This document shows, piece after piece, positions 1 to 57,279 of a DNA stretch of 64,000 nt (position 1 is the first letter of the stretch; every line of letters starts with the position of its first letter). This DNA comes from Psammoneis japonica (taxonomy: Eukaryota): NCBI GenBank assembly GCA_008632985.1, contig QPGO01000112.1:124001-188000 (forward strand), read 5' to 3'. Position numbers and translations under genes: made by a program. The notes beneath the pieces were generated by a model. It saw only the letters and a list, made by a program, of their open reading frames with translations. It had not been told where the DNA came from and did no database searches.

Positions 1-1
1 C

Positions 2-250
2 AAGTCGTTCAAGGACAAGAAGAAGATCAAGGCAAGCCAACACACGGACAACAACTGCGAGTTCTACAACGACGGGTGCTTGGCAGTCACGAAGCGAATC
101 ATGCCCAGGGAGGAATTTCTCTGCAGATGCAACTTGGACGAATCGGAGAAGAAGAAGAAGAAGAGGAAGGTGACGTCGGGTGCCATGAATCGGAAGAAGA
201 AATCGCGTCTGCTCCCCAAGTCGGGGGGGAGAAGCTCTGCATCTGGCTGA
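2..250 (+). CDS. 3' end of a putative SET-domain lysine methyltransferase (5'-truncated by window edge; TA-mutated)
   Basis: Frame 2 reads KSFKDKKKIKASQHTDNNCEFYNDGCLAVTKRIMPREEFLCRCNLDE...*. This resembles the SET C-terminal pattern NC...l.a.r.I.pgEEl..dY if the final Tyr has become Cys (TAC->TGC). A Lys-rich tail follows. Not in the ORF track because it has no start codon. Confidence 0.5.
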   Translation, partial: KSFKDKKKIKASQHTDNNCEFYNDGCLAVTKRIMPREEFLCRCNLDESEKKKKKRKVTSGAMNRKKKSRLLPKSGGRSSASG

Positions 251-379
251 ACGTTTGCCGTGTAGTGTGCTCTGTAAATTAGCAGCACAGTGTGTTGGTG
301 TTTTTCAGCAAAACTGTGGCATTGGTTGGAAAGGCGTAGCCCCAGTTGTGGTTCGAAAAATGGGAACGAGGAAGAACAG

Positions 380-503
380 AAAGTCGGCAAATTTGCGCAA
401 ATCTGGCAAATTGGCAGGTGCCTGCACAGTCGCCTGAGTGCAGAAAGTCAGCAAATTTATGCAAATTTAGCAAGTTATTTTGCACTGTCACAGTCGCCTG
501 AGA
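380..503. repeat. Two-copy ~64 bp tandem repeat
   Basis: aaagtcggcaaatttgcgcaaatctggcaa...cacagtcgcctgag at 380 and aaagtcagcaaatttatgcaaatttagcaa...cacagtcgcctgag at 444. Confidence 0.75.
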
Positions 504-1624
504 ATGGTCTCTTCCTCTAGAGAAAGGGGGATTGAATTGTTGCTCTTGCCCACTGCAGCACTCTTCAGGCAGAGAGACACGCAGAAGAACTCGTCATTTG
601 AGTTTGTCCTGCTGGAGATGCAGTGGCACTTGGTGGGGTTAAAAATGATGACATCACCAAGCCGGAGTGCAACGGAGATGCCTTCGGCAGGGAAGCAGAA
701 GTGCGCCACAATCCCGTCATTCATGGTGTGGCTGCCGGACGGAGGGACTCCCACCACAGTGACCACTGACAGGAAGAAGTCCTGGTCCCGATGGGCGTTG
801 AGGAAGACATTGCGCCCAGCCGCCAGAGAGGAGAAAATGCCATCTGACCGCACCAGGGATTTCCAGTTGTGAAACTTTTTGACACGAGCAATGCCCTTGA
901 GGATGGCATGGTCCACGCACTCATTGACAAGGTGCTCCATGCGTGAAAGAAGTCTGGTGAGGTGGTGAGTGTGTTGGTCGGCTGTGCCAGGCTGCTTGCA
1001 AGAAATTCGAGCGTCTCTCGTGGCAGCCAGGCCAATCATGGAATGCTTGCTCCTGTCCGTCTCCATGAAGGTAACGTGTTGTTTGCCGCGCACGGTGGAC
1101 TGGGCGGTGCAGCATTCTAGTGCTTCGAGCGCTCGGCACTGAGCAACTGGTTCTGCTGGGTTGGGGGAGCTGAACACCACAGCAGAATGCGGCAGCAGGG
1201 TGCAGGTGTTGTCGCAGCGGCAACCGTCCAAGCCAAAGAAAGGCTTCAGATTGAGCACAGGGTCACAGACGACCAGAGGAGCCAATTCGGCAAAGTCAAT
1301 GTCAGCAAGACAAGGTGGTGCAGGCTGAGTGTAGTCGCCGTTGTGAACCAGAGTGCGGTTGGCTACGCAGCGCATGGAGAGACTCTCAGTGGCGCACGGT
1401 GCGAGTGGAACAAGGCGAGCAATCTTGGATGTTTTTGCACTGGCACGGCTGCGGATTCGCCTGCGGCTGCGGTGGGCCTTGCGAAGTGGCGGTTGAGCCC
1501 TCAACACATTCTCGCATGTCCTGGTGCGCATTGACGATGCGGTGTTCGCAGAGAACGTGTGTGCAAACTTGCCGGCAAATGTTCCGCTGCTTGACACTGT
1601 CACTGTCATCTCAACAGTGCCCAA
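488..1624 (-). CDS. TET/JBP-like 2OG-Fe(II) dioxygenase (TA-mutated, transposon-associated)
   Basis: C-terminal DSBH-like motif order: FSSLAAGRNVFLNAHRD (HxD, 785-793), HFCFPAEGISVALRLGDVIIFNP, distal His in KCHCISSR. Spacing is typical of TET/JBP-type oxygenases. Start codon uncertain. Confidence 0.6.
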   Translation of the reverse strand: MGTVEMTVTVSSSGTFAGKFAHTFSANTASSMRTRTCENVLRAQPPLRKAHRSRRRIRSRASAKTSKIARLVPLAPCATESLSMRCVANRTLVHNGDYTQPAPPCLADIDFAELAPLVVCDPVLNLKPFFGLDGCRCDNTCTLLPHSAVVFSSPNPAEPVAQCRALEALECCTAQSTVRGKQHVTFMETDRSKHSMIGLAATRDARISCKQPGTADQHTHHLTRLLSRMEHLVNECVDHAILKGIARVKKFHNWKSLVRSDGIFSSLAAGRNVFLNAHRDQDFFLSVVTVVGVPPSGSHTMNDGIVAHFCFPAEGISVALRLGDVIIFNPTKCHCISSRTNSNDEFFCVSLCLKSAAVGKSNNSIPLSLEEETILRRL

Positions 1625-1783
1625 AGCAGAACTCTTTCAACAGGGACCGGCGGACTCTAGGGGAGTGGGGTCAAAACCTGATCGAGAGATGTGTCTGCTT
1701 TCCGTTGCCTCAAGAGCACCCAAAGCAAAACTCTGTTGACAGGGACCGGCAGACTCCAGGGGAGTGGGGTCGAGACCCAATCG
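1620..1783. repeat. Two ~65 bp direct repeats, 99 bp period
   Basis: cccaaagcagaactctttcaacagggaccggcggactctaggggagtggggtc at 1620 vs cccaaagcaaaactctgttgacagggaccggcagactccaggggagtggggtc at 1719. Confidence 0.85.
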
Positions 1784-2302
1784 CAAGAAGCATTTGCTTG
1801 TTGTCGGGCTGCGAGCTGCATGTCCCAAACCCCCACACTGTTGAGACCGGCTGTAACTCGATCGCGACAAGTGCTTGTCGTTGGTGGGACGACGCAGCGA
1901 GGCACGAGGCAGTTGCAACATGGTGTGTCTCAATTTGAAATGTGTTTCAAAATGTGATGACGGAAGTGTTGTCGCGTTGTTTTTGTCTCCGCGGAGGGAG
2001 GATCATCCCACGGCAATCTCAGTGCGAGTTCTCGCGTAGAAGTGCGTTGCGTGCCGTGCCAGCTCGTGCGTTTGAATTGCACGGACAAACAAGTGCGGTG
2101 ACGATGAGAAGCAGGCCGAGATTCAAAACAAATTTTATCACCCAAAGGCGTCTCATCATTTCAACGCATCTGCACATCTGTTTAAAATGACTCCATGCGT
2201 CGCTCCATGCACAGGTAGAGGCAGCACGCTGCGTTTGAAAATTTCGCGCGCACAGAGGGCGCGACGGCAATTTTACGCATTCTGCGCACGTCACAGTTTG
2301 GT

Positions 2303-3052
2303 TTGGAAACGCGACGTCTGGTCGAACCCACTGCAAGCAAGGTTGATGTTGCCACAAGGTTGGATGCGATGAACCATCGTTGCAGAAGTGTTGGGGAGTT
2401 TCATCTTCAAACGGCTCCGGACTCCACGTTCCAGAGCAGGCATGTCTCTGGAGACGGAAGCGGATCTTCGCACGGCGGCGAAGTTGGCTTCGCTTTGAGC
2501 AGCGAAGTGTTTTTGAACGAATGCCTTCTTGGCGTGAATCACACCTGCGATGCATCTGTCGACATGGGCGGGGGAGTTGCCGGACCCAGCATCGGGCTCA
2601 AGTTACTTCGTCGCCGTTGCACCATGGTGAGCATCGAGGCCGACCACGATCGTCACCAAGAGGCTGTACGTTGGGCTCATCGTGCTGGCCTTCGCTCAAA
2701 CGGCGGGTTAGAGTTGATCAACAAGTCATTCTTGGACGAGAGGCTGGCTCCTTTGTGGAAAAAGAAAGGACTCAAGGTGTTCTTCAACAACTGCAACTCC
2801 CGCATGGTCGATGACAAGAACACACAGCAGAAGGCAGAGGCGGTGCTTTCGAAGTTGTGTTGTGCTGGGACCGTGGTGGTGGTGCTAGATCCGCTGTTCG
2901 CGTCGCACGCGGGAGAGTGGATGTGCGAGTCCTTCACGGCGGATCACCATGATGGCGACTTTTTGTGGCACAGCGGAGACGTGAAACATCTCGTCTTCCA
3001 CAAGTGCACCAAGAAAGAGGAGACTTCTCAGTCAACCAGCCAGCACATGTGA
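2303..3052 (+). CDS. DOT1-like class I SAM-dependent methyltransferase (TA-mutated)
   Basis: Motifs occur in DOT1 order: SHGGE (YGE), SVDMGGGVAGP (motif I, FxDLGSGxG), VSIE (motif II), INKSFL (GDFL), VFFNNC (IFVNNF/Y), GTVVVVLDPL (GxRIVSSKPF), FLWHSG...VFHK (VSWT...YYLH). Confidence 0.55.
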   Translation: METRRLVEPTASKVDVATRLDAMNHRCRSVGEFHLQTAPDSTFQSRHVSGDGSGSSHGGEVGFALSSEVFLNECLLGVNHTCDASVDMGGGVAGPSIGLKLLRRRCTMVSIEADHDRHQEAVRWAHRAGLRSNGGLELINKSFLDERLAPLWKKKGLKVFFNNCNSRMVDDKNTQQKAEAVLSKLCCAGTVVVVLDPLFASHAGEWMCESFTADHHDGDFLWHSGDVKHLVFHKCTKKEETSQSTSQHM

Positions 3053-3325
3053 CGTCCCAGTCCGACACACTTGGAACGGAAGTGTTTGCCCGTCGCGAAA
3101 CAGCCAATTTTACTTGAGAACTCAACTGAACTGTTTTTTTGCTGTCACTGCACTGGACGTCACACGCCAGTTGCTCCACTCAATTCGCCATTGCTTCGCG
3201 GTGATGACAAGTTGTCATCGGAGATGGCACATGCTTGAAGAGACAGAGGAAAGCTGAGTTGCAATCGACACTCAGTTTGCCAAACATTTACAAATTTACA
3301 CTGCACCGGCAAAAAAAAAAACAAC

Positions 3326-4198
3326 TCAGTCTTCGTCGCTGTCCTGAAGCACCAAGTCGTCATCGACGTTCAGGTCAACTTCGCAGTTGAGCTCGACATC
3401 ATCGTCGGCCTCTTCTCCAGCTTCTTCTGCCGGAGCTCCAATGAGACGACAGAGTTCCACAGGCAACGACCCCTCGTAGAAGCAACTGTGAAGTAAGTTC
3501 TTGTTTTGGGCGCACCAACCGATGTGAAACTGACCACCTTCCTTCTGAAGCTCGGCAAGCGCCGCCTCGTTGCCGATCACTTCGGACCAAACAGCATCCT
3601 TCATCCAGAAGAAGTTGTCTTCAACGAAGACCTCGGCGTTGTTCTCAGGGTCATCGTTGAGCTGCTTTGCAGTGCACTTCCCGAGGCCGGGCACTTTGGC
3701 ATTGGTTGGGACTTCTTCAAGGAAGATGAAGAAGAGACACACGGCGCAGTTCTTGGCGTTCGTCTGCAACTCGCCTTTGTGAACCCACCTGCCAGCGCAA
3801 GGGTGGAATCCGACTTGAACCGCCCACGGAGTCCTGCTGCGAAGGTTGTCAAACAGAACCTTCTCCGACCAAACATTGGTCAAAAGGGGATTCTTGGCTT
3901 GGAGACGAAAAACGATGCCTTTCTTGCGGCCGACAGTGACGGTGGCGCAGCGCAGGAGGGCGTCCTCATCGGAATGGCTGCCATCGTCAGAACCAGCGGA
4001 TTTGGAAAGCTTGAGCCCGTGCTTGGCAAGGCAGTCTTCCGGTCTAAGGTCGTCGTCGGTCAAGCCGTTGGTCTTGCGGGGCGGACTTGGTTTCTTCAAC
4101 AGAGCATCAGAAAACTTCATCTTTGCCTTCTTCTGTTTGGTTTCGGCGACTTTGGCTTTCGCAGCCGGGGAGGTCGTTGTGTTTCTTTTGTGTGCCAT
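3326..4198 (-). CDS. Unknown protein, Lys-rich N-terminus and acidic C-terminus (probable element cargo)
   Basis: About 290 codons from ATG 4198 (MAHKRNTTTSPAAKAK...) with a globular-looking core and a D/E-rich tail. No family recognised. Confidence 0.45.
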   Translation of the reverse strand: MAHKRNTTTSPAAKAKVAETKQKKAKMKFSDALLKKPSPPRKTNGLTDDDLRPEDCLAKHGLKLSKSAGSDDGSHSDEDALLRCATVTVGRKKGIVFRLQAKNPLLTNVWSEKVLFDNLRSRTPWAVQVGFHPCAGRWVHKGELQTNAKNCAVCLFFIFLEEVPTNAKVPGLGKCTAKQLNDDPENNAEVFVEDNFFWMKDAVWSEVIGNEAALAELQKEGGQFHIGWCAQNKNLLHSCFYEGSLPVELCRLIGAPAEEAGEEADDDVELNCEVDLNVDDDLVLQDSDED

Positions 4199-4743
4199 CG
4201 AATCAGTCAGAGAGAAATTGTGGGAACAAAAAGTGCGATCGTTCAGAAGTGCCAAGAAAGACCCAGCAGAGCTGCGTGCATCATGCCAAGGAGAACTGGC
4301 AATGTCAGCAACTAGATCCAAACACGTCGAACTGCAACAAGGCAACCTTCCAGGTGTCAGCACTTGCAAGTGGTGTGTGGATTCAATTTGAACAAAACAG
4401 GTGCAAGGATCGGAGCACGCAAAGTCACACCAAGTTTGCTGAAAATGCACAAAATCACGTGCAATTCCGTCCGCGCTTCGTGTGCATTTCAGCCGTTGCT
4501 GCCGCGCGGCCATCGCACACGAAATCTAGTCGCCAAACGGTCGACGCCATCGCTGTCACTGCTGCACCGGCAGTTAGCTAAGGTGGGCCCATCACCCATT
4601 TGGAGGATCCGCGCGCACTTTGGAAACACGAATGACGTCAATCGTGTTGTCATTGCCACATGACTGGCTCAACTGCCCCGCCACTCGTTAAAGCGTGATT
4701 CTGTGGAATTTGCGCAAAGCTGCGCCCACCACCAAGATTGCCG

Positions 4744-4844
4744 AAACAACTTGAACAAGATCCAAATCTCACCCCATGGAATGTTCAGAGCAGATGGTCA
4801 AAACAACTTGAACAAGATCCAAATCTCATCCCATGGGATGTTCA
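4744..4844. repeat. Tandem duplication, 57 bp period
   Basis: aaacaacttgaacaagatccaaatctca(c/t)cccatgg(a/g)atgttca at 4744 and 4801. Confidence 0.85.
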
Positions 4845-5035
4845 ACGTCGACGAAACCAAGCAGGATGTCATGCGTCTGGTGCGAAGAAGGACGTGGGAG
4901 GAACGCACACGTCACTCTTCCGTCGATGTGAAAGAGGCACACTTTCGTCTCACTTTTTTGTGACAGAACCTTTGCGCAAAGGGAGACGAAAAGCATCCAA
5001 CTGCGGTGATTGGGCCACACCGATCGTAGTTCTCA

Positions 5036-8000
5036 GTTCTCACAGTGACCTGGTGACGCAGGTTGTGAGATGACGCACAAGCTCAGCTGCGGTGACTGGA
5101 CGACACCAGCCACAGCTCTCACAGAGACCTGATCGCACAGGTTGTGAGAACACGACACAACGCTGCGGTGATCGGACAGCACCGACGCAAAACAAAACCA
5201 AAATTCTGCATTTATGGTGCTGCTGCGCTTCCACCCTGCAACTCCGGCAACAAGCCAACCCACACCCCCAGTGCACTAAAAGTGCGGCAGGAGCAAACAG
5301 TGGTCAGCCGAGATCGGCGTCACCCGAGGGTGACGCCGCGCCAAAATGACTTGCGATGGTTCTGGTGCCTCGTGCAGCCAAACGTTTGGCTTCGTGCATG
5401 CTTGATTTAAAGACTGGTTTGAACATGGCCAACCAGTTTCGAATCCGGTGAGTAGAGTGTGACAGGTGTTCTTCTACCGAATCAAGGAGGAGCGCCTTGT
5501 CTCTCGCAAGACAATCGTCTGTACGAGAACAAATGGCCTTGACCTCTGCTTCTGCGTCTCGTCTTTGAGACGACTTCCTCGTTTCCGAATCGTGTCCGTG
5601 TACAGCGTCGTTGTGAGCGTCCCAGAGGTCCCACCACTGCTCCCATGTGAAATTCCCAACAGTTGCAGCCCAATCCAGCCGTTTCTGTTGATCTGAGAGA
5701 GTCCGACAAATGCCGCTCGACGAAAGGCAAGAGGTTTGCGTCGCATTCCACTGGACAGAAAAACGGCCATTAAACAACTGACGCCAACCTGTTTCCCCTT
5801 GGGAATGAAATGCGGGCACGACGCTGTGATGAAATTGTTCCGAGCACAAAAGCTCGCCTTGAAACCATGCTTCAACAGCCAAAATTGTCAAGTCTCGTAA
5901 GGAAGGAGACGTGTGAATGTCATCGCACTTCTTGCGCAATCCTTGTAAAAATTTTCTGCGCCAGGCTTCATTGTGAGGGCAACGGAGAATGTGATCTCTA
6001 TCTTCCATGGGGTCCTGACAGTGAATGCAACAGTCCGGACGTGTCGGATTGTGTCTGTGTGCAATCTTGTTGGTGGGCAGAAGATCTTGAACCAGCTTGA
6101 CGGCACTGACTTTTCGACGAATGTTTCGTGACATCAATTTCGAATGAACGTCCCAATCAATCGATGCGTGTGCTTCGTCGGACCAACTGCATTTCTCTTT
6201 CATGTGCTGAACCAGTGCGGGACTTGACGCCTGACATCTGACAACCGGCTTGCATTTGGAAGAAACAGTGGCTCCTTGAAGAAGCAGGTTTGCTCGGCAA
6301 TGAGGCATGCGGGGAGCAGCAAGAGCATCGCCCGTAAATCGACCTTGGAATTGTCCAGCGAGTCTGTCGGCACGCATGTTCAACTTCGCCGCTTGAGAGA
6401 GAGAGTCAATGGGAAGGACATCGTCTTGGTGTCCCTTCACCCAGTGAATCTCGACTGTGGGACACAACAGTTCATCAGTGCGTGCTTCTGACAGCTGTCT
6501 TGGGGAATGGAAGACCTCATTGACAATGTCCCAATCCGGAGAGAGAGCACCAGCAATGTGAAAACGCCAGTGGAAGTCTCCTTGGATCTCCTCCTCGTCG
6601 GCAGGATGAGGAATCACCTGGAAATTCGAGATGGTGCGAATGAGAGCGGAATTGTCGCAATGCAAATCGGCGCCGCTGACCTGTGTGGAACAATGGTCTG
6701 ACAATCGGATCAGAAAACGGAGAAAAGACAGTAGACCGCATGCCTCCGCACGACAAGATGATGGGCGAAAACCGAAAACTGGACCAGCACAATCCACAAG
6801 AGGAACCCCGTCGACCGCAATCGTCCACCCGAATGCACCTTTGAAATGGAGGACCGAACCGTCGCCAGCTGCTGAAACCTTGTGGGCAACGAGGAGCTCA
6901 GCGATTTCAAACACAGACCGATGCAAGTGCAATTCTTTGAACAGAGCAGATTCCCACCGAGGAAGAGACCGCAGCACAGCCAAGAAATCATTCGGGACGG
7001 GAGGGACTGTCGGCAAGGATGCTGGAGAACCGAGTGACTTGATCCGCCACAAACCGGTTGCAGTCGCATCCACTGGCACAGGGGAAGCGGCTGGGGAAAG
7101 ATCTGGAACGTTTTCCAGAGCGGCAAGAGTCTCCGCACAACCTTGGTGCACTGGGAAAATCTCGAAACCCGAATCGCCACGAATGTGCAAGCAATCCTCG
7201 GAGGATTCGTAACACGCGACATGTGTCATGCACATTTCCGTAGCTGGTGCAACCCATTGACCTAAAGGGTGTCGTAGATCGAGCGAGTCTGGTTTGCAAA
7301 ACAAGGAACAGGCTCGACGCCACTGTTTCCATGCCCGAGCGGATGGACGTTGTTGTTCGACAGGATTCAGAGTGCTGCGACTGCTGAGAAGGAACGATCG
7401 GCCGTTCACTTTAAAGGGATCGAGCGAAAAACCATCCGGAGAGGCAACATCCGACAGAGTCAAAACATTTGGATAGAGACGACAGCAGTTGACCCACCGC
7501 ATCTCACGATCACTGAACGCCTGGGATTGAAGCACAACGTCCATGATGTGTTGGTCATTGTCTCGCTGGAGTGGAAGCACTCCAGCACAATCACAATCGA
7601 TGGTGGCATCGATCCGGGCCAAGAATGAACGTAAGGACACAAACCATTTCGATTCGGAATGAGGGAGCTTGGCATGGACGTCCTGAAGAAAACTCACACC
7701 TGTGCCAAGCTGCAACTGAATCCACGATGCAGCGATTCGCGACAACACCTGAGGTTGCCCAGAGCCCCGCCAGTGGGTGAGAAACTGTAGAACCTGCGCT
7801 GCACCCTGTTCCACGTCTAAAGAGCTGAAACCACGGACAGCACCGACGCAGTTCGTCAAGCAACTAATTCACTTGGCTGCGGTGACTGGACGACACCAGT
7901 CGCAGCTCTCACAGTGACCTGATTGCACAGGTTGTGAGCAAACAACACAGCGCTGCACCTCGCAATGTAGGTTGTGAGATGACGCACAAGCTCAGCTGCG

Positions 8001-8350
8001 GTGACTGGATGACACCAGTCGCAGCTCTCACAGAGACCTGATCGCACAGGTTGTGAGAACACGACACAACGCTGCGGTGATCGGGTGGCACCGACGCAGT
8101 TCGTCAAGCAACCAATTGACTCGGCTGTGGTGACTGGACAGCACCAGTTGCAGTGCTCACAGCGACCTGATTGCACAGGTTGTGAGAAGACGACACAGCG
8201 CTGCGGTGAACAGATGGCACCGACGCGGTTCGTTGATCAACTGGACAGAACCACTGCGGCGACTGGACGACACCAGTCGCAGTGCTGCAGGTGGTGAGAA
8301 AACACACATCGCTGTGGTGATTGGACAGCACCGATCGCAGCTTCACGGTG
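5036..8350. repeat. Degenerate ~120-130 bp minisatellite array (5036-5189 and 7834-8350) split by a LINE insertion
   Basis: Recurring gctgcggtgactggacgacaccag...ctcacag.gacctgat.gcacaggttgtgaga...gcaccgacgca. 5060-5189 is nearly identical to 7969-8098. Confidence 0.85.
5190..7833 (-). mobile_element. 5'-truncated non-LTR retrotransposon (RT C-terminal region + RNase H + Cys/His knuckle) with 17 bp TSD
   Basis: ORF 5304-7859 carries RNase H motifs (AGDGS, SSCRAEACG, HCDN, HWVKGHQD, NMRADRLA) and CIHC...EDRDHILRC. An exact direct repeat cggacagcaccgacgca lies at 5173-5189 and 7834-7850. Homologous to the element at 37-45 kb. Confidence 0.88.
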
Positions 8351-8427
8351 ATCGCACTGAAAAAACAACCATTTTTGCTGAGTGACTTCTTGAAATTTGT
8401 TGAGTTGAAGCATCAGCTTAAATTAAA

Positions 8428-11400
8428 ATGGACGAGGCCAACTCCCGTGTTTGCAATGCAATCAACAGAAAGTTTGAGATGCTTTGTCTGCACAGAGACG
8501 GAGAATTTAGACCACACCCATGTTCAGTCTGTGACGTTCTGCTGAAACCTAGAGAAGTTTGCCACTTGCCACTCGAAACATTGGAGTCAGCAAGAAACTT
8601 GCTCACCCCTTCAGACTGGAACAGCGCATCTGATTGTCTCAAGTCCTGCCACACTGTAGAGCATGAAGATGCTGATTGGATCAAAGACCTGCTGCTTTCT
8701 CCCCGCACCCAATGCGCAGCACAGGAAGACAGACGACGCGTCGACGGATTCACTTGCTGCAGCGAATGCCGAAGAAGCCTGGGAAGAGCCGTCACGCCAA
8801 TGTGCGCGACAGCGAACAACTGCTGTTTCGGCACCCCACCGCACAAACTGTTGTCTCTGACCGAAGTAGAGTTGGCAATGCTCACACCAGTGAAAACATG
8901 CGGGCGCTGCTTCAGTTGCCTTGGCGGCAAACAGAAGAAGCTTCAGGGAAGTCTGACATGCTACAAAGTCAAGATGCAAAGCATCGCAAGAGCTGTTGTG
9001 CACTTCGACGCACTGAATTTACATCAGAATGTGATTGCACTGATGACTGGAAAGATGACTCCGGAGCAAAGACAACTTGCACGTTCAAAGAACAGAATTA
9101 GGACGCACTGCATGCTGCGGGTGATGGAATGGCTGTTGCACCATGACCAAGAGTGGGTGTGCCAACAGACAAATCTAGACGAAGTCAGGCACAATCTGCG
9201 GAATCCCGCACTTGTCGATGGCACCAGCGAAGAAGAAGGAGAAAATGCGAACATTGAGACCTCAGAGTCATTTCATGTTTGCTTTCCTGATGGAACCATG
9301 TCTCCTGCGACCGGTGGTCAGCGCAACCTGGACTGCTTCAAAGATCTTGCACATGAAGCTGCTGCCAATGGATTTGATTTAGAGGTGCAAGCACAGTTGT
9401 CTGAAGAATCTGCGAGTGATTTCAAAGGCAACAACTTCATCAATGCGTGTCTGCTGCAGTTTCCTTTTGGCAGAGGAGGAATCAATGAGACGAGAATGAA
9501 GAAAGACGGAAGTCTCACAGATGGCACCAACCTTGCACACTGTGCCGACCACTTGGCATGGATTTCCCAGCCTCACTTCCACGAGCAGCTCTTTGTGTTA
9601 ACATGCTGCAACTTGACAATGAAGCAAAGGATGCCACAGAGTGCAGGGTGGAAAGTCAGGGACAAGAATCAGGCTGCACAGTTTGCAAACGAACCAACAG
9701 TGGACGACGTGGGTGGAGCTGTTTGTGATCGCAACTTGGGCGAGAGAAGAGATTGTGGACTCGGGCACCACTTTTTGCACGCACTCGACGTTGTGTCTGC
9801 GTCTCTGCCACACAGTGACGAAGCAGCAAAGAAAATGAGGAGAAATGCCGAAACTCATCAGCATCATTTTGGTCAGGGTGGCATTTTCTTAACCGTCAGT
9901 CCGGACGATGCAAATTCGTTTCTTGTGCAACTGCACTCGGGTGTCATCCTGGACCCAAACGAAGATGTGACACAACTGATGGACGAAATTCTTGCCAGCA
10001 GGGCTGAGCAACGTGATGAACTGCGTCTAAAGTTTCCCGGTCTAACAGCCTTTGTGTTCGAGTGCTTGTTTGACATTGCAATGGAAGAGGTGGTGGGTTG
10101 GGATCTGAGTGCCAACCAACCAAGAGAAAACTTTAACTTCTGCATTGGCAGGCCAGCCGCATTTTTAGCTGCAGTTGAGGAGCAGGGACGTCCAACAGCA
10201 CACGGACACATGCAGATCTGGTTTGCATCGATCAACAATGCAAGAGAGAAACTGCATTCGCCAATGAGACAGATCCGACGCGAAGGTGCTGAGCACCTTG
10301 CCAACATGGTTCAGAAGATCTGCAGCATGGAATTAATCTGCAGCGAGGACTTCAGCACTGGCGCGTTGCATGAAGCATTCGACCATGACTGCACAGTGCC
10401 AAAAATGTGTCGCACCTCTCCAAAAGTGGCAGACAACCAACAGCTAAGAAACCTGAGGCATGAAGACGGCCAGCAGTCGAAGAACGGAATGTTTGCTTGT
10501 TGTCATCACTGCACCAAGCACTGGACAAACGTCGAGTTTGTAGAAAGCTTTTTACAGTCACGGCACCGTGTGCCTGGCCTGACTCGCCATCCAGACAACC
10601 ATGCAAAGCGACTAAAAGCAATGTGTGTGCAACACCAGCGAAGTGGTCCGCAAGGGGCAACAGAGGCACACATGCCGGACGCAGCTTACAACCATCACAT
10701 GCACGTTACGAAGTCGTGTTTTCCCAAATGCGCAGAGTTGCGTAAAATGCGCAAAAAAACCCCACACGAGGAACTGGACATGCAGTCAAGGAAAAGGAAA
10801 CGAGAGGAGCTCAAACCAGGTGACTGCCGTCACAGGCAACCAGCTGCTTCATGTCCAAATAATTTGGCAAGGAACGCAGATGACACTCAGATGAAGTGGT
10901 TCAGCTGGGATGGAACTTTTGCATGTCGGTGCGTGAAGGAAGTTGTTCCGAAGAGGAGAAAGTGCGATGCTTTTCAAAATGTGTCGAGCCCTGCAACAAG
11001 CAGATCAAAACTGACATGCAACACAAACATTGCTTTGTTGATGCCTGGACCGTCCACTCAACACACGATTGAGCACATCCTAAAAGACACCCAGAAAGAT
11101 GACACTGCATCGTACGACGAAGTGCTTCAAACTACGAACAGGGTGGCGACGGAATTACGGAAACACGCATCTGATGCATCGGAAGCAATCAGACGTCTCA
11201 CATGGGGTGCTTGCTCGCATGACAAGACGAACATCATTGGACCACCACTTGCGTCTTGCATGACAAGGAACGGAAGCCGTTTCATCGAATCTCATTTGAC
11301 CGCATGGTGCCCCTTGAAAGACATTGTCAGCACACTGGAAAGAGACGAAGTGTCTGCGACTGCAGCCCATTTTGGCGATGCACCGTTCTTCCAATGCCAG

Positions 11401-14076
11401 GCCTTGCACTGCCCATGTCGTCCAACAGCACTGGAGAATCTCAGTCCGTTTGCATTTTTCAGTGAATGCAAAGTTCTTCGCAACACAAGGAAAAACGAAC
11501 ACGGCATGATGATGTTCGACAACAGAGCGCACAGGCACCCGTCTCACAATTCAACGAAGAATGAGTTTCTTCAAGGTGTCAGACAGCGACAGCAACCGCG
11601 ATTGTCAAAAGCACTTCAGTGTGATTTTCCTGATGCAGCCAAGTTTGGCAGTTGCCTCATAGATCCGCAGCAACCAACAACACTGGACAAAGAATTGCAC
11701 TGCAAGTTGGCATTGGCCTTGTTTGCGCCTTACAGAACAATGACGGAACTCAAACCAATGACCCGTGCACACCTGCATGAATTCCAACTCTCCGCAGTAG
11801 CCGGTGTTGTTGCAGAGGAAAACTTGAACTTCTTGCAGAACCCACAGGATGCTAAGTCCAACTGCCTTCGTCTCAAAAGTGCATCTGACGATCTGCAAAG
11901 AAAGACGGAGCAATTTAGACCTGCTGACGTTGCGTTTGACTGTTGCGAAAGTGACGAGGAAGAAGGTCTTTCAGGCGCCGTTCAGGGTCAACTGCTGGAT
12001 GCACTCTTGGAAGAAATGGCAGAGCAGCCAGAAGACGATGACATTGGGTTGAGCGACCAAGCAGTTGTTCCTGCACATTTGAGCGGCAAACATGCAAGAC
12101 AGAAAGGTTCACACATGGGTGGTTGCAAATGCTTGGCAGACACGCACACTGACCCACCAAACGAGGAAAGCCAGGTTGATGAACGACAACTTTTTGAGAA
12201 TCTAGAGGGCGGCGATGACACCGACGAGGAAGACCAGAATGAAGGAGTGCAACAACACATCCACAGCAGACCACTGTCAAGAGACGACATTGTTCGAGTG
12301 ACACTGACTAGAATGCAAAGAACAAGAAGGTTGTTTGAGGACATGACAGGTTTGGAAGAACACGTCGATGTACGTCAAGCAAACGGATCTGCAGCAAGCA
12401 TCGTAGACTGGGCTAGGAAAGCAAGACTGGACAGGCAACAGCAGCGTGCCTTTGAAATTCTAGCAGGAACCTTTGTGCTCACTTGCTGCCAAGACGCTCT
12501 TCAAGATGAGACGTCACACAATGGACTCAACAGGAGAAATGGCAGACACGAATTTGCAACAAACCTTCGCCGATTGAAGAAACTCGTGGAAGTGCAAAGA
12601 CGCAGAACGTTGCAACTTGTGTGTTTTTTACATGGTGCAGGTGGAAGTGGCAAATCAACCACAATGGACCTCGTCGTGGAGTGCGGAAGAGAGCATTGCT
12701 CGCTCATTGAGCAGCCGTTCACAACAAGCACAATCAGAGTGACTGCACTGACCAGAGTGGCTGCGACTGTTCTCAAAGGGGACACAATCCACCAAGTTGC
12801 ATGCCTCATGAGAAGAAAGCAAACAACCGAAGAGCAAATTGAAGCATGGTCAGACACGAGACTTTTGGTGGTGGACGAGATTTCTTTTGCAAGCAAGAGA
12901 GAACTAGAAAAACTCCATGAGAATTTAACAGCATTGAAGAGCGAACCAAGCAAGCCGCACGGTGGCATCAACATTGTTCTCGCAGGTGACCTCAGGCAAC
13001 TAGAGCCAGTTGGAAAAGGAGTGAAACCACCACACAAAGATGCATGTCCCGAGTTTCACGAGTGGATCAACTGCTGCATGGAACTTCGTGGTGCACACAG
13101 GTTCAAAGACGATCCATCATGGGGAAAACTGCTCAAGAGATTCCGCACTGGCAAGATTGCAGTTGACGACATGGAGCACATCAACGAACGAGCAGTTCAG
13201 AATGAAGATGATCTGCCCAGTGACCTCCGCTGTGCTGTGTGCGCAAATGAGGACAGAGATGCAATTGACACTGGCCTGTTCGAAAAAAGAGCAGAAACAC
13301 TGCACAGAAGAGATGGAGATGTCCTTGACTCAATGTTGATTTTCAGTGACGACTTGCAGGTGCAGAATGGCACGAGACTCTGCCAACCATTTCCGGTTTG
13401 CAACAGCTTCTGGAACAACTGTGGTGAAGGAGACGTTGTCATGCAATCAGGAAGAATGGATCCAGTCTTACGAATTTACAGAAGATGCAGAGTCATGACA
13501 CCTTTCAACGAAAATGTGGCAAACGGTCAAGCAAACGGAACGCAAGCCACTGTTGACAAGGTCGTTCTCAAACCAGGACAGGAACCAAGACAGTGACTTT
13601 AGACAACAACATTGGCATTCCTGCTGCACTTGCAGTCAGGTGGACCATGTTGCATTGGAACACTGCAACAAAAGCATCGACCCCGCGAAGTTTTTAGTTG
13701 AGCCAAAAACAAATGCTTTCAGGGCTTGCATCGCCAAGCCCAGCCTAATTTTAGAAGAAGGCGACAACAAAGGCACACTTTCCAACTGAAGGCAACCCAG
13801 CTGCCGTTTGTCATCAACAATGCCACTGCAGGGCACAAACTGCAAGGGAGTGGAGTCCCGCAGTTGTTTGTACACTCTTGGAGCTGCACTCAGAATTGGG
13901 TGCATGTTGTGCTCTCCAGAGTAAAGACCAGAGAAGGGCTGTTCATGCGAAAGCCACTGAGCAAGGACCTGCGAAAATGCAAGGTCCCAGAAGGCTACGA
14001 AGCCTTGACAAGACTCATGAAGGAGAGAAGCGCCACGCATTTTTCTCAGCAACAGTGCGCAGAAATGTCAATGTAG
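8428..14076 (+). mobile_element. Helitron-like Rep (HUH) / PIF1 helicase gene; frameshifts near 13595-13790; TA-mutated
   Basis: 1722-aa ORF plus shifted tail. Rep motifs: GGIFLTVSPDD, AVEEQGRPTAHGHMQIW (E.Q.R...HxH), HTIEHILK (YxxxYxxK with Y->H). PIF1 motifs: GAGGSGKS, VVDEIS, GGINIVLAGDLRQLEPV, HRFKDD, ANG, ATAGHKLQG, HVVLSRV. Termini not identified. Confidence 0.92.
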
Positions 14077-14222
14077 TGCGCAAACATTGGATTAGGATGC
14101 TCAACCACTGTGCAACTGTTTGGCGACCCCAACCGTAAAAATGCGGAAATTTCGTAAAATAAAATGTTTCGATTAGATCAGCACATTGCGCAGAAATCTG
14201 CACATGCGTCACACAACGTCGA

Positions 14223-14796
14223 ATGGATTTTAACCAACAAACCAAGAAACGCGAACGCAACCGTCACAGAAAACGCAGCAACAGAGAAAACATGGATTTG
14301 CAACAACAAACAAAGAAGGCAGACGAGCCAAAGAAAACTGGTGAGGACAAGAAAAAGGTGCAGACACATGCGGAACTTCTTCAGTCATTGATGAACAGGA
14401 AGACGAAGAGGAGATTACCTTGGAAGAAGCAAGAGCGGCGTTTGACCTTGCTCGGGAAATTTTGATGTCACTTCTGCACTTGTGCAAGACAACACGACAG
14501 TGGACAGTCATCATGTGGAAACAACAGTCACGCCCAAGGATGACTCAACCATGGAGGAGCTAAAGGCAGCATGTGCAGCGGTGATTCCACAGCGGTCGGG
14601 GAGATTTTTCACCGAGGAGGAGATGGCGGAGCAGGAGAAGGAGCAAGCAAAGTCCCTTCAGAAGAAGCATGGCCAGAAGAATGGAATTGAGCAAATTGCA
14701 AACAACCATTTGGTGAAGACAACCGCATCAATGCGCAAAATGCACGCACATGGACTTTCACTTGAGCCGCCGCGGATTGAGTGTGGCCACAAATGA
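14223..14796 (+). other. Possible frameshifted K/E-rich ORF downstream of the helicase
   Basis: Overlapping charged ORFs 14223-14465 and 14482-14796 within the TA-depleted block. No family recognised. Confidence 0.25.
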
Positions 14797-16024
14797 GGAC
14801 AACCTTTGCAAAGAAACTGCAACAATGCGCAAATTTCGCACATTTCCACATTCACTCTCAATCCAACGCAGCTTGCCTTGGACAACATCAACATGCACAA
14901 CTGGACAACATCAACACACACAGACAGCCTCATGAAACCTCACAGAAGACAGAACGGTCAGAAGCAAAACAACCAGCACCACGCACTGGCGCATGTTAGT
15001 CATGTCGCGTGGGTCGCGCAAAAGTGCGCACCGAAATGACCGTCATGTGTTGCAATTAATTCGAATGCCCGGCGCAAAATGCAGCAAAATGATTGGTGCA
15101 GGCAATCGTCATGGCTCTGTTTTCTGACAGCCCTGCTTGTGCACAGAAACGCGTGGCGAGGTCCTGAGCATTTTCGATGGCACAGAGCCTTGCCACGGGT
15201 TTCTGTGCCATCTGCGACAAAGCTGCGTAGATTTGCGCTGAAATAAATCTGAGTGCCGCATGTCTGCGGTAAGATCTGCGTGAAAAGAACTCGAAACCTG
15301 TCCACCGAGCCGGCGTCATGTGCCGGCCGTCGTGAAAAATGTGTTGTGTCTGAGAAAGAGTTCGTCAGGGCCGGCGAACAACACACCTCTACGATGCGAT
15401 TGGTGCAAAATCTACGTAAATGCACAGAAACCAACATGTGGCTTCTGTGCAAATTAGAGCTCGTGAAAAATAAGCAGGGACAGCAGCGAGGGCGGCAATC
15501 CAAAATCTTTCGGTTTCAGACTTCGATCTAGAGAGTTCCACCTAAAAGAGGAGGAACCAATTACTACGGATTTTTTTGCGCGGTGCGCGGAGGCCGTTTT
15601 TTTTCCCTCGACCTATCGCCAACAACCCACCATCACATCATCGGCGCTGCACCCCGACAGAGCCGCGTAGATGTTATTTCTTCGCCGTTGAGGCAGAACA
15701 ACCATTGCGGGTGATTTCCACCCTTTCCAACGCCATTTCTTATTTCATATTTATGCTTACTGTCGTTGCTGCTGTTTGTTCTGCGGCAATTGGCTCACAT
15801 GCATAAGGTTGCTATTGTTGCTGCTGTTGCAGATAATATTCTGGCTATGAATCACCAATGTGGGGGGCCAACGAGAAGAAGTATGCTTTGTTTAGGTGTC
15901 AATGTAAGTTACATTGTTATCTATCGCGTTGTTCTTTTTTACTCAATGCATTTCATGTAATGCCTTGGCATTACTTACTAACACGAGCACATTATCTGTC
16001 TTACTATTGTTTGCTTGTAGAGTC

Positions 16025-16284
16025 AGAATTCATTGAGAGTATACCGTTATGCCGTGGCAGCATCACAGCATTACGTTTTTCCCGGATTGAGGCGCCGGGG
16101 CCGATGCCAAAGGAATGGTGAGGGTACGCACACCAAGAATTTCATTGAGAGCATACCATTGTGCCGTGGTAGCATCACAGCATTACTTTTTTCTCGGATT
16201 TTTGGTAGCATCACAGTGTTACTTTTTTCTCGGATTGAGGCACCGGTGCCGATGCTAAAGGAATGGTGAGGGCACACACACCAA
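16025..16284. repeat. ~111 bp tandem duplication with an internal ~35 bp sub-duplication, 3' of the piggyBac ORF
   Basis: agaattcattgagag...ggaatggtgaggg.ac.cacaccaa at 16025 and 16136. Confidence 0.9.
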
Positions 16285-16445
16285 CAAAGCAATCATTCAT
16301 CAGTTGGAAAGAACACTGGGCAATGGGTATTGTGCATGAGGTTTTCCACCGGCATCTTCAAAGAGATAGGTGCAGGTAAGCTTGTGTCATGTTGTGGCAT
16401 CTAAGCAAGTTATGTTTTTGTCACTCACTAAGTTTTATGTAATGC

Positions 16446-19400
16446 CTACCTGTTCCTGATATGACCTAGGTGATCGTAATCTGGCCAGCACACTTTGCAA
16501 ATTGCTTCACCACATTTCCTACAGCCGTACAAAGATGTACGACTTCCTTTTCTCAAGGTAGCGTAATCGGCATCTGGCATCGTCAATCTGGCCTTCCTTA
16601 TGCAATCAATGCAGTCTTTGCTATGGTTCAGTATCTTGATTGCTTTCTTGTCGTGCACAATATCTTCTTCCCGTACAAGTCTCTTTCTCCCTTTCTTTGG
16701 CCGATGAGTCTTTCCATGCGTGAGGCCGTGCTTGCAGAAAAAGCATTCTCCACAGCCACAAGGTACGTACGGCTTCTGTCTGACCCATTTTGGCTTCGTG
16801 GTGGGGTCGTTTATGTTTGTCCAATCCATGCTAATGCCTTTGTTGATACACTGTATTCCCAGATCCATCATCCACTTGAACTTCCATCGTGTGGTCTTGG
16901 CATATTTTCAAAGGGGTGTCCCACTGTTGAGAGCTTTTTTGTGATCACTTTCATTGCGTGAGTTACCCCGTCCATGCAGTAGTACATGATGCGGAGGTAG
17001 TATCTGTTTCCCTTCAAGCTGATAGACCAGTCAGCAGTCTCCCTGTCTTCCCTGTCGACAGCACGCATGAACTTGATATAGTCGGGGATGACCGCATGGG
17101 ACGAGACTGGAACTCGGCTGTGCTCGTCGTTGTCCCACCGCAACGTTTTGTGATCCCCAGGTACGCCCACCATGTGGTTGTGCAACACGCCAACCTGTTT
17201 TCTGTCTTTCCAAGTTGTTGCCTGTACTACAAACCCAGCCGAATTGCTCTTGTCTCCTTGCACAGTCTTCTGAGCCCAGCGTAACCACCCACGAGGCACC
17301 TTGGACAATGCTCCGGATGACAGTTTGTGGAAGGGGAAGTCGGTTGCTGTTCGTGACTTCTTTTTCGTCATCTTCACGGTGCCCACCACCAACATGCCAT
17401 ACGTGTCATACACCAGTTTCATGAGCTGTTCCGATGTGTAGAAATTGTCGGTGTACAGCTTGCGTCCTTTTCCCGACAACACTAGTTCGGGGTCCATAGC
17501 CAACAACCTTGAAACAACTTCGAGTGGCGATGCATCATCATTGTCCTTGCCAGTGTAGACATAAAATGCATATAGATATCCGGTTTCTGCGCAGCACAAT
17601 GCCCACACTTTTATGCCGTGTTTGATGGGTTTAGCGGGCATGTATTGAACAAACTTTACAGCCCTTCCCTTGTAGAGAATCATGGACTCATCAACCGTTA
17701 GCTTCTCTCCAATCACCCACCCGGCCCTTAGCCTTTTGCCAACTTTGTTCACAAATGGGATTATCTTCTGCAATGGGTGCCATCTTGAAGTGCCGTGCCT
17801 TGGCAACTTTCTGTTGTCGACGAAATGGATGAATCTTCGAATCTGGGTGAAGGCATTTCGAGACATGGAGTGCTGAATCCATGGCACTGCCAAGTCATGA
17901 GTTTCCATCCACAGGAGGTCTTGCCACTGGAGTTTCATTGCAGCCAGAACAAACAAAACTCCAAACCAAGCAAGGAGGAACCCAGGAGTGACTTGGATCC
18001 AAGGCTTTTTTTTGTCCTTGTGTCTCTTCCTGCTGTCAGGGTGGTCCTCCTCACATGGAACCAACCTGGCTCTCCTCTTGGGCTCTTCCTCAAACTCATC
18101 CCCAAGCTCATCATCTGAGTTGCAGCCTTTGCTGCTGCCAACAGACCAGTTGGAAGAATCGCAAGAGGAGACAGAGCTCTCGTCATCAGAAACCATCCAA
18201 AAGCTCCCGTGCACCCCAAACGATGAGTCAGTGTCACTGGAGTGAGAGGACTGGTCGCTGGATTCAGAGGCGCTGCTGCTGCTGCTGCTGCACTTGTCAG
18301 GGTCAAAAATTGATCCACCAAAGAGGGAGTCTCCATCGTCCATAAAAAAGCCCGGCTGCCTTGCTCCATCAAATCAAAATCCAGCTCCAACTGATCACAA
18401 TCAGCCACAATCTCACAGTTGGTTGCATGCCCATGCTCCTCATCTTGCTCATTCTGATCTTTAATTTGTTGCCACTCTTGCTCAGTCACAGGCCTGACCC
18501 ACTCTTCGTTGGCACAAAAGTTGGTCTCCTTGGCAACCTCCTCTAAGTCGTCAACCGTGACAAAGAAGAGAAACAAGTCAACAAGAGACTTGCAGGCTTG
18601 CTTCACAGCCCATGATGGGCCACAAACACCCCCTCCACCAGGGCCTGCATAAGATCCAGACCATCCAGGTTCCCAGTTAGAGGACCCCTCATTCTCCCAC
18701 CCAGGTGGAACAGGCCTTTCAAGCTCGGAATCCAGCAGCTCTCTCTTCTTTCTCTTGGCAGCCCAAACATCAGATAGAAGCTCCATTCCCTTGCCTTTGT
18801 CCACAAATTTGAAGAGGCGATTGTCATTCACCACATCAGCTTGTGCCTTGGCATCAACAATGGAAGAGTGAGCTTCAGGAAGCACCTCCTTGTTCTTCAC
18901 ATGACACCAAATTTCTCCCAAGCTGTAGCCAACAACTTTGGATGTCTTGGCATTCAGGGCACAGGACTTGCAGTGCTCAATTGTCTTCCTTGGGTCACAA
19001 AAGTGCTTCAGCCCTTCAGGCATGGACAAGGTTTTGCGATGGGTGTCTTCAGCAAGACGAAACATGCACTCGCAATCACCTCCCTTGCCTCCCCATGCCG
19101 CCAGAATCCCAACCTTGGAGCCTGCATCCAACTTGTCTTCTACAAACTTGCAAAATCTTGGCCAAACCAATTCCATTTTATCAGCATTGGCCATGCGGGG
19201 ATCAGTGAGCTTGAGTTTGTGCGACTCCTGGGAGGCCCTCTCCATCTCGTCGGTCCACTTGGTTCCTTCTGGAGGCTTGATGTGCTCGTCAAATTCGCCG
19301 AGTGTAGACTTGTCATTTGGATCTACTGCAACAGCTGAGAGCTGCAGCATGCCACACTTCTTCCCTCCATGCTCCACATCAACATGAAAAAGTGCACATC

Positions 19401-19636
19401 GTCCTGCAATCCAATCATCATGGGCCACAGAATTTGTTTGACGAGGCGCTCTCTGAGCTGGTGCCGGCACGTCATCAGGTTGTTCAGCAGAGGCCAAGGG
19501 AGCAACGCCGGACTCCAAATCAGCATCCTCCACAGATGTGTCATCGGAGCTGAACGCAAGCATGGAGATGTCCATTGTCTCCATGATGTTGCCGACGCTC
19601 ATGTCACCAACACCGTGAAAGACGGTTGTTTTGCAC
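16446..19636 (-). mobile_element. piggyBac-family transposase with N-terminal DEDDh exonuclease domain and C-terminal Cys-rich domain; frameshifts near 18345 and 16870
   Basis: piggyBac motifs: DLFLFFVT...KETN, MSRNAF.QIRRFIHF, VDESM, YMPAKPIKHGIK, TDNFYTS, MRAVDREDR. C-terminal CxxC clusters at 16446-16871. N-terminal VDVEHGG...GDC...AHSSIVDA (DEDDh). Likely splice acceptor ttttcag at ~19637. TIR/TTAA ends not identified. Confidence 0.88.
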
Positions 19637-22018: not shown

Positions 22019-22161
22019 ATGGAGAACTGAAGTTTCAGTTTGATGCACGCATCCGGCAATCGATTCACCTAGCGGTTATGGCAATGAAGTTGTGGAGGAA
22101 GTCAAGCCAGTCTCCTGCTCCCATCATTAAACTAATAGCCGCATCGTATCCAGCAAAATTA

Positions 22162-22227
22162 GTATTATCTACGTTTTCTAGAGGTATGATACAGGTATTA
22201 TCTACGTTTTCTAGAGGTATGATACAG
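22162..22227. repeat. Perfect 33 bp tandem duplication
   Basis: gtattatctacgttttctagaggtatgatacag x2. Confidence 0.9.
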
Positions 22228-44855: not shown

Positions 44856-44865
44856 TGGAAAAAGG

Positions 44866-57260: not shown

Positions 57261-57279
57261 GTTGGTCATAACCTGCTGG

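Follow-up and report, generated by a model that had tools for sequence, protein, structure and literature searches.

In a 64-kb stretch of the Psammoneis japonica genome (contig QPGO01000112.1, positions 124,001 to 188,000 of the forward strand; hereafter the window), the dinucleotide TA is nearly absent from transposon-derived DNA and occurs at normal density in the host-gene blocks. The affected elements include a Helitron and retroelements of the long interspersed nuclear element (LINE) type, in which most conserved tyrosines have been replaced, chiefly by cysteine and histidine. We consider it very probable that a host process in the nuclear genome of this diatom converts TpA to TpG or CpA in transposon-bearing chromosomal domains. 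Such a process is not without precedent: TpA-only A:T to G:C hypermutation has been reported in integrated viral DNA of Bigelowiella natans (Mettrop et al., bioRxiv 10.64898/2026.01.13.699255, 2026). By comparison with that report, the window appears to hold a genuine case of the same kind, now in a diatom.

Calculated per kilobase, the ratio of observed to expected TA (TA o/e) is 0.02-0.22 at 1-15, 18-21, 31-49 and 61-64 kb, as against 0.43-0.81 in the kilobases of host genes. A simple segmentation assigned 39.2 of the 64 kb to TA-poor DNA, in six segments that form five blocks:

601-13501: TA-poor segment, TA o/e 0.14, CG o/e 0.83
14301-15101: TA-poor segment, TA o/e 0.09, CG o/e 0.73
17801-21001: TA-poor segment, TA o/e 0.10, CG o/e 0.50
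30901-49501: TA-poor segment of the largest block (feature 30870-49550), TA o/e 0.05, CG o/e 0.30, TG+CA o/e 1.74
57301-57901: TA-poor segment, a small island (feature 57270-57960) with 4 TA in 601 bp, TA o/e 0.11, CG o/e 0.43
60901-64000: TA-poor and CG-poor segment (feature 60810-64000) that continues past the window end, TA o/e 0.03, CG o/e 0.09, TG+CA o/e 1.91

The TA counts per 600 bp given in the sequence-only reading of this DNA were reproduced on recounting (5 at 9001-9600, 0 at 32401-33000 and 25 at 55021-55620), and the segmentation agrees with its placement of the same signature at 17.8-20.9, 30.9-49.6 and 60.8-64 kb, to which the 57301-57901 island is now added. This island, 0.6-0.7 kb long, is surrounded by otherwise normal host-gene DNA. 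Its origin is probably a small piece of a transposon, in which case short inserts are marked as well.

Pooled over 39,200 bp, the TA-poor blocks hold 194 TA dinucleotides, where 1660 would be expected at the rate of the host blocks (991 in 23,400 bp; TA o/e 0.58-0.65). Expressed as the ratio of the frequency in TA-poor DNA to that in host DNA, TA stands at 0.12, CG at 0.59, TG and CA at 1.39 and all other dinucleotides at 0.80-1.18. Per 1000 dinucleotides, 37.5 TA and 22.2 CG are missing (59.7 together) and 57.4 TG+CA have been gained, a balance that points to conversion of TA and CG to TG or CA. The TG/CA excess had been ascribed to a TpA mutator, but part of it comes from ordinary CpG decay. 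The GC content is 50.1% in TA-poor DNA and 47.5% in the host blocks. The block borders are sharp, as can be seen from the gaps between consecutive TA dinucleotides (17762 to 18343; 30863 to 31184; 60805 to 60969 to 61182). They can be placed to within 300 bp, with transposon-derived DNA on the TA-poor side and TA-normal host-gene blocks, in agreement with the earlier claim that the signature is confined to transposon DNA.

These figures set the process apart from repeat-induced point mutation (RIP) of fungi, in which C is converted to T (CpA to TpA) following duplication, in the sexual phase. The two have in common irreversible transitions in repeat and transposon DNA, a strong dinucleotide context, action on both strands and the inactivation of element genes. 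However, RIP, acting mainly on CpA, makes TA and stop codons and lowers GC, whereas here TA and stop codons are removed and GC is higher in the affected DNA. Low-copy DNA is affected here too, in contrast to the duplication trigger of RIP. The process in the window is not RIP.

The direction of change was read from columns of conserved residues in alignments of the following elements:

8422-13596, plus strand: Helitron ORF (open reading frame) of 1724 amino acids encoding Rep and PIF1 helicase, with Pfam matches to Helitron_like_N, PIF1 and DUF6570
5304-7868, minus strand: C-terminal part of a LINE-type retroelement (RNase H-like region, zinc motifs), hypermutated and low-copy, with an ORF of 854 amino acids at 5307-7868
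30870-49550 block, plus strand: LINE-type element with an endonuclease ORF at 38885-40858 (Exo_endo_phos, E=1.5e-8) and an RNase H-like ORF at 42484-44043

The Helitron ORF was placed in an alignment with 20 homologues from the database (32-45% identity), and a column was taken as conserved if at least 60% of the homologues have tyrosine there. At the 31 such columns the window copy has Cys 14 times, His 8, Tyr 4, Phe 4 and Arg once, the codons being TGC (12), TGT (2), CAC (8), TAC (4), CGC (1) and TTY (4). Control residues are mostly kept: Trp at 14 of 14 columns, His at 18 of 18, Arg at 46 of 51, Cys at 19 of 23 and Phe at 35 of 45. The retention of Arg means that the surplus Cys and His did not arise from CGN codons. 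Conserved Ile is kept at 12 of 27 columns, and the others have become Val (6), Met (5) or Thr (3), which are the outcomes expected where ATA or T|AT contexts lose TA. All four surviving conserved tyrosines are encoded by TAC and none by TAT. The whole ORF contains 5 Tyr, 76 Cys and 79 His; the sequence-only reading had given about 5 Tyr, which is confirmed, and a length of 1722 rather than 1724 amino acids. Both catalytic tyrosine columns of Rep, occupied by Tyr in 19 of the 20 homologues, are His in the window (HTIEHILK, 11062-11085, plus strand), and the ORF, although open, is accordingly predicted to be catalytically dead, as the claim of catalytic tyrosine loss had it.

An equivalent test of the LINE-type copies used 35 homologues that span most of the query, chosen among 150 listed relatives. 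At the 13 conserved-tyrosine columns of the copy at 5304-7868 we found Cys 4 times, His 4 and Tyr once, and at the 9 columns of the copy in the 30870-49550 block His 4 times, Cys twice and Tyr not at all. Tyrosine makes up 0.2% of residues in the window LINE copies vs 1.7-4.9% (median 3.45%) in the 150 relatives listed. The motif SYRAExYG of the homologues reads SSCRAEACG in one window copy (6735-6761, minus strand) and SSHRAEAHG in the other (43312-43338, plus strand), and these motifs, like HTIEHILK and the PIF1 motif HVVLSRV (13903-13923, plus strand), are present as had been described. The fourth example fared less well: CTDD does occur, at 41618-41629 on the plus strand, but its proposed origin from the reverse transcriptase (RT) motif YxDD is ambiguous, as the relatives mostly have FVDD (19 FVDD and 2 YVDD among the 21 homologues carrying the motif, 35 having been examined). 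The two window RNase H-like ORFs, aligned with each other, are highly diverged (37% identity), with 5 Cys/His pairs among 297 differences. With conserved tyrosines of two unrelated families giving the same outcome beside control residues, and with the polarized copies described next, TA is proven to be the ancestral state and TG or CA the derived one, which is the direction proposed from the start.

Metagenome contigs scanned with the Helitron alignment yielded 74 loci. Four of them have TA o/e below 0.2 (L004, 0.03; L019, 0.09; L069, 0.17; L063, 0.19), and most others are at 0.45-0.96. L004 is a full-length Helitron match (1-7761, query residues 10-1722), TA-depleted like the window copy, and L019 (500-3907) is another TA-poor Helitron relative. 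Two TA-poor or partly TA-poor loci, L069 and L057, have close TA-normal relatives, L026 and L035, respectively. Between L069 and L026 (91% identity), 50 TA sites of L026 correspond in L069 to 17 TG, 16 CA and 15 retained TA; in the reverse comparison only 1 of 16 TA sites of L069 is altered in L026. Of the CG sites in this pair, 13 of 55 have become TG or CA. The second pair (96% identity) was polarized by an outgroup, L023. In the L057 lineage, 26 of 32 changes are A to G or T to C, with 20 of these 26 at TpA, vs none of the 10 changes in the L035 lineage at TpA. Counted by site, 33 of 95 TA sites are converted in L057 and 0 of 61 in the reverse direction. The first 56 TA sites of L057 are intact, and 33 of the following 39 are mutated. 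This tract (~1300-2709) begins ~1.3-1.5 kb into the locus, 3' of a TA-normal Helitron ORF, and is apparently the product of a recent, partial hypermutation with a sharp edge.

The possibility that the composition of the elements was inherited, through horizontal acquisition from a donor poor in TA, or results from selection against TA within them was rejected, and we consider it extremely improbable. Nothing specific speaks for it; most genomes show a mild shortage of TA, and the host blocks are themselves at TA o/e ~0.6. Against it, the residues replaced include catalytic and conserved tyrosines, which is no neutral compositional choice; unrelated families are affected alike; and close copy pairs differ nearly only at TA and in one direction. 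Tyr-poor relatives are also rare, numbering 0 among the 150 LINE relatives listed and 1 of 20 Helitron homologues. The latter (P0123, 2012 amino acids; Tyr 0.8%, Cys 3.7%, His 3.8%, the other 19 having Tyr 2.7-3.9%) is another hypermutated Helitron, from a public assembly. Biased gene conversion was likewise rejected, there being no general AT to GC shift outside TpA.

The two products, TG and CA, are about equal in number, in line with the earlier claim of action on both strands, and strand choice appears random along the tracts: the order of TG and CA is that of a random series in both the L069 and the L057 pair (17 runs in 33 hits, P=0.5). The pattern resembles numerous separate hits, each at a single site and on either strand of a delimited region, and not a processive pass along one strand. 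The same data bear on the idea that the mutations were made before integration, in LINE RNA or cDNA or in single-stranded Helitron circles edited by an ADAR- or APOBEC-like enzyme, the mutated copies then inserting. A single-stranded intermediate should mark one strand, but TG and CA are equal and randomly interleaved; DNA transposons and retroelements are affected equally, the DNA-based Helitron to the same degree as the LINE-type copies. Borders would be expected to match element ends, as the one at ~15.3 kb does, where read depth and TA density shift together, but others fall inside elements (in a piggyBac-like ORF and in L057). At residue 555 of the LINE fragment, where 21 of 35 homologues have Tyr, the window has CAC and another genomic copy TGC, as expected if an ancestral TAC was hit separately in the two copies following duplication. 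ADARs, animal enzymes that act on double-stranded RNA, prefer G 3' of the edited base, vs a pyrimidine here. They do favor U 5' of the edited A, according to the B. natans preprint (10.64898/2026.01.13.699255), which fits a TpA target. On balance, editing before integration is improbable, and the process is not RNA editing copied back by retrotransposition.

TA and CpG have not been lost in step. The region at 1-8 kb has TA o/e of 0.04-0.22 and CG o/e of 0.64-1.13, whereas the blocks at 31-49 and 61-64 kb combine TA o/e of 0.02-0.10 with CG o/e of 0.05-0.6, as would be expected if TA disappears much more quickly than CpG decays. In the L057 pair CpG is unchanged at 57 of 60 sites across the aligned region, so the TA process can run without CpG decay. 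Deamination of 5-methylcytosine (5mC) also yields TG and CA and is present here as a separate second layer (CG ratio 0.59; the oldest blocks have CG o/e as low as 0.05-0.3), but it cannot remove TA, which is lost with CpG intact both at 1-8 kb and in L057; the process is not CpG decay alone. A link between the two layers could be sought in error-prone patch repair of deaminated 5mC, in which a Pol-eta-like polymerase mis-inserts opposite T at WA, making TA to TG a by-product of methylation. In favor of this, WA is the hotspot of polymerase eta in immunoglobulin hypermutation, and TA-poor blocks are often CpG-depleted (CG o/e 0.09-0.50 in four blocks). However, AA/TT is not depleted (ratio 0.97), for which reason WA mutagenesis of the Pol-eta type was rejected; the 1-8 kb region has lost 80-95% of its TA with CG o/e still as above, and the L057 tract lost 33 of 39 TA with CpG nearly unchanged. 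We therefore regard patch repair as an unlikely source of the signature.

A further property of the process is its sequence context. When 66 converted sites were read on the strand carrying the A to G change, the conversion rate depended on the base 3' of the edited A (T, 25 of 71; C, 19 of 63; A, 13 of 98; G, 7 of 54; chi-square p=0.001), and the base 5' of the T showed a weaker and different pattern (p=0.04). The survival of NTAN tetranucleotides in the window vs host DNA follows the same order, with 0 vs 110 for ATAT, 1 vs 129 for ATAC/GTAT and 78 vs 88 for TTAA. All ten NTAN classes are fitted by an additive model in which each 3' base has its own cumulative hazard (T 2.63, C 1.44, G 0.77, A 0.34). 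These counts give 5'-T[A]Y-3' as the preferred site. This is exactly the codon for tyrosine, and the preference leads to replacement of Tyr by Cys (TGY) or His (CAY); ATA becomes ATG or ACA. Despite their poor contexts, TAA and TAG are reduced 4- to 6-fold, to 2.3 and 1.6 per 1000 trinucleotides in TA-poor DNA vs 10.3 and 10.1 in host DNA, with TGA unchanged. The change of TA to TG or CA creates no stop codon except by TAA to TGA, which accounts for the long ORFs on both strands and for the open frame of 1724 codons in a dead Helitron.

Sequencing reads bear on copy number and on whether the TA-poor letters are real. Two runs from the same sample were used: X1 (DNA), which contains 93% of the sampled words, and X2, which contains 26%. 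Across 1-20 kb, the summed read depth of X1 is 2500-5900 at 1-5.3 and 7.3-15.3 kb and 160-510 at 5.3-7.3 and 16-19.3 kb, with a drop from ~3900 to ~200 between 15.3 and 16.0 kb; single-copy DNA is at ~100-330 and the LINE fragment 5304-7868 at 320-510. The Helitron and the repeat 5' of it are thus multi-copy, and the TA-poor DNA at 5.3-7.3 and 17.8-20 kb is low-copy by depth. Copies differ in the DNA run by 393 transitions and 43 transversions (393/436). The 40 best-supported of 443 copy differences form 31 events, of which 16 have CG in other copies vs TG/CA in the window, 5 have TA vs TG/CA (in both directions), 6 are runs of TG vs CA and 4 are of other kinds. Swaps between TG and CA are ambiguous on their own, as they could descend from CG or from TA.

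A sequencing or assembly artefact, in which modified T or A at TpA of silenced DNA is miscalled and the real DNA still has TA, is very unlikely. Over the TA-poor stretch 17784-18939, each X2 contig of ~280 nt departs from the window by 1-3 differences, and X2 is taken to be RNA because one of its contigs (1184 nt) has four GT..AG gaps; the match therefore argues against miscalled modified bases. Since TA is palindromic, symmetric modification would produce conflicting calls on the two strands and not a stable, site-specific TG or CA, and copies differ in the choice of TG or CA. The signature is also found in unrelated metagenome assemblies (4 of 74 loci) and among database proteins (1 of 20 Helitrons). 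In B. natans the mutations were called from Illumina data (10.64898/2026.01.13.699255). What favors an artefact is that the best DNA run is possibly the assembly's own data.

The remaining features of the window are as follows:

1-5300, no strand given: TA-poor high-copy repeat (depth 2650-5870 in the DNA run), class not assigned, TA o/e 0.09-0.22, CG o/e 0.64-1.13, with long overlapping ORFs on both strands
13597-15300, plus strand: frameshifted C-terminal tail of the Helitron, carrying HVVLSRV, and end of the high-copy repeat, with the TA-poor border at ~15.2-15.4 kb
15301-17762, no strand given: TA-normal interval, TA o/e 0.61, with a spliced plus-strand transcript and the 3' two-thirds of a piggyBac-like ORF
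16871-18373, minus strand: piggyBac-like DDE ORF (DDE_Tnp_1_7, E=5e-41; 6x67-like)
17763-21000, no strand given: TA-poor block with its border inside the piggyBac-like ORF and no TA between 17762 and 18343
21001-30869, no strand given: host-gene control block, TA o/e 0.65, CG o/e 0.96, with Psb27 (21488-22015, plus strand) and a TPR protein (26154-27041, minus strand)
49551-57269, no strand given: host-gene control block, TA o/e 0.58, CG o/e 1.01, with AWPM-19-like, HAD hydrolase and MFS transporter genes

Few of the ORFs in TA-poor DNA can be assigned by profile search. Among 71 ORFs from the TA-poor blocks, one (the endonuclease) exceeded the Pfam curated cut-off and four gave faint matches. 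None of 14 ORFs tested from the 1-5300 repeat reached that cut-off, the one faint match having E=0.02, and the ORFs at 5307-7868 (minus strand) and 42484-44043 (plus strand) had no Pfam match. The latter two align to the C-terminal third of proteins of ~1900 amino acids that carry an Exo_endo_phos domain and RVT_1 matches below the curated cut-off, and for this reason they are read as LINE-type. A comparison of the LINE endonuclease ORF with solved structures returned 0 matches. The TA-poor blocks contain many pairs of long ORFs on opposite strands, such as 3329-4525 (minus strand) and 3497-4312 (plus strand), which overlap and have no family match; such pairs exist because TAA and TAG are nearly absent. 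Compared with itself, the window contains only 12 short repeats. A direct repeat of 130 bp, 95% identical between its copies (5060-5189 and 7969-8098), lies on both sides of the low-copy LINE fragment. Several more copies of the unit, diverged in sequence, occur at 7840-8286, so that the fragment seems to sit within a short tandem array.

The TA-normal interval next to the Helitron is transcribed. The 1184-nt X2 contig covers 15668-17263 on the plus strand, with gaps at 15889-16021, 16373-16468, 16760-16861 and 17157-17263; the transcript is antisense to the 3' end of the piggyBac-like ORF and is read as a host transcript, and its longest exon ORF (16470-16958) has no Pfam match. All 15 tyrosines of the piggyBac-like ORF lie at residues 234-465, on the TA-normal side, and none in residues 1-233; this copy may have been domesticated or protected in part. 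The host blocks also encode a TB2/DP1 protein (Pfam), and host ORFs have 2.6-4.5% Tyr. The Psb27 ORF is 64-86% identical to its best 120 matches, all organism-named ones among which are from diatoms, and the named matches of the MFS transporter are likewise from diatoms, which identifies the host of the window as a diatom, one whose own proteins the database lacks.

The following mechanism would account for these observations. The targets would be chromosomal domains that contain Helitrons, LINE-type elements and unclassified repeats, and the process would act in place on DNA, on both strands and site by site, until 80-98% of TA is gone. TAA and TAG would be erased along the way, leaving dead elements with long open frames, and a slower, separable decay of CpG to TpG or CpA would add to the TG/CA excess in older blocks. 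The most likely chemistry would be enzymatic deamination of adenine to hypoxanthine in DNA, and a candidate enzyme would be of the TadA/ADAT2-like type or another nucleic-acid deaminase, directed to silenced chromatin. The border inside the piggyBac-like ORF and the L057 tract suggest that a chromosomal state, for example silent chromatin, would be the targeting cue, and not element identity or copy number. What the data show is the signature with its direction, strand symmetry and sequence context, the sharp borders of the domains and the independence from CpG decay; the enzyme, the targeting cue, action in situ in this genome at present and a role in defense are inferred.

Several points weigh against this reading. 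The best-supported copy differences (40 of 443) are dominated by CpG decay, and only 5 events exchange TA for TG/CA. Master copies may already have been TA-poor at the time of their amplification. The DNA run X1 may be the window's own assembly sample, hence not independent, and X2 carries the label 'DNA?', its RNA nature resting on the single contig with four GT..AG gaps. The metagenomic Helitron loci are not tied to any host. Adenine deamination and a T-directed process on the opposite strand give the same signature and cannot be told apart by it. Finally, low-copy TA-poor DNA counters a strict repeat trigger, which weakens the RIP-like part of the proposal and not the hypermutation as such. 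The description of the process as repeat-restricted, with a trigger by duplication as in RIP, accordingly lacks support, since the TA-poor DNA at 5.3-7.3 and 17.8-20 kb is low-copy and one border lies inside the piggyBac-like ORF. The statement that no pathway of this kind had been described has been overtaken, since the B. natans preprint (10.64898/2026.01.13.699255) reports the signature.

According to that preprint, 231 of 302 nuclear point mutations in 15 mutation-accumulation lines of B. natans fell in two integrated viral regions; 230 of these 231 were A to G or T to C, all on TpA by the authors' account. New mutations arose in the viral regions at ~6e-7 per site per generation, a rate about 1000-fold higher, and in only 11 of the 15 lines, the activity being episodic. 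The genome contains 124 clusters of TpA-poor, CpA+TpG-rich 1-kb windows, and DDE, RT and endonuclease-RT domains are over-represented in a set of TpA-poor coding sequences. The authors propose ADAT2-like adenine deamination and cite DNA editing by ADAT2 in amphioxus and trypanosomes (10.64898/2026.01.13.699255). Judged by these published results, the two cases share an almost exclusive A to G/T to C spectrum, restriction to TpA with TpG or CpA as the product depending on the strand, and confinement to foreign or mobile DNA in clustered regions (1-kb windows in B. natans, borders within 300 bp here) that lose TpA and gain CpA+TpG. They differ in the host, a chlorarachniophyte (Rhizaria) there and a diatom (Stramenopila) here, and in the targets, which are viral in B. 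natans and mainly Helitron and LINE-type elements in the window. New mutations were measured in B. natans, whereas we see a fossil footprint alone. TA o/e is 0.45 in the B. natans giant-virus insert as reported, vs 0.02-0.2 here, which is near saturation. The main text of the preprint makes no mention of a T[A]Y preference, random strand choice or borders inside elements, and the words trinucleotide, tetranucleotide, flanking and diatom do not appear in it.

Known adenosine deaminases (TadA/ADAT2-3, ADAR and adenine base editors) resemble the process in converting A to inosine, which is read as G, and in having T or U directly 5' of the target. They differ in that the process here apparently works on double-stranded chromosomal DNA and on either of its strands. 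For one editor derived from TadA, a preference for 'YAC' has been described (PMC13109818), while the best 3' base in our data is T and not C, so that the two preferences are close and not identical. A full-text literature search found no report of the TpA hypermutation signature in diatoms, or elsewhere beyond B. natans. New in the present case are the saturation, the T[A]Y preference, random strand choice, borders inside elements, separability from CpG decay and presence in environmental sequences.

The footprint in a diatom, together with 4 of 74 environmental loci, would mean that the process is not confined to a single strain or to viral inserts. The T[A]Y preference, the random strand choice at each site, the sharp tract borders and the independence from CpG provide handles for a candidate enzyme. 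For genome annotation the consequences are practical: unless the signature is recognized, gene and repeat annotation of diatoms would be biased, as TA-poor DNA yields false long ORFs on both strands, which gene finders would over-call as genes, and genuine domains score under the Pfam cut-offs. Should the process depend on an adenine deaminase active on chromosomal DNA, that enzyme would clearly interest biotechnology. As a tentative and somewhat doubtful extension, diatoms, and perhaps much of the group of stramenopiles, alveolates and Rhizaria with the chlorarachniophytes, may possess a natural T[A]Y-specific adenine deaminase system for chromosomal DNA, aimed at silenced chromatin. As its specificity matches tyrosine codons, it would inactivate the enzymes of transposons and viruses by replacing catalytic tyrosines and would remove stop codons at the same time, a heritable defense chemically opposite to RIP. 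If so, this system would be the natural counterpart of laboratory adenine base editors.

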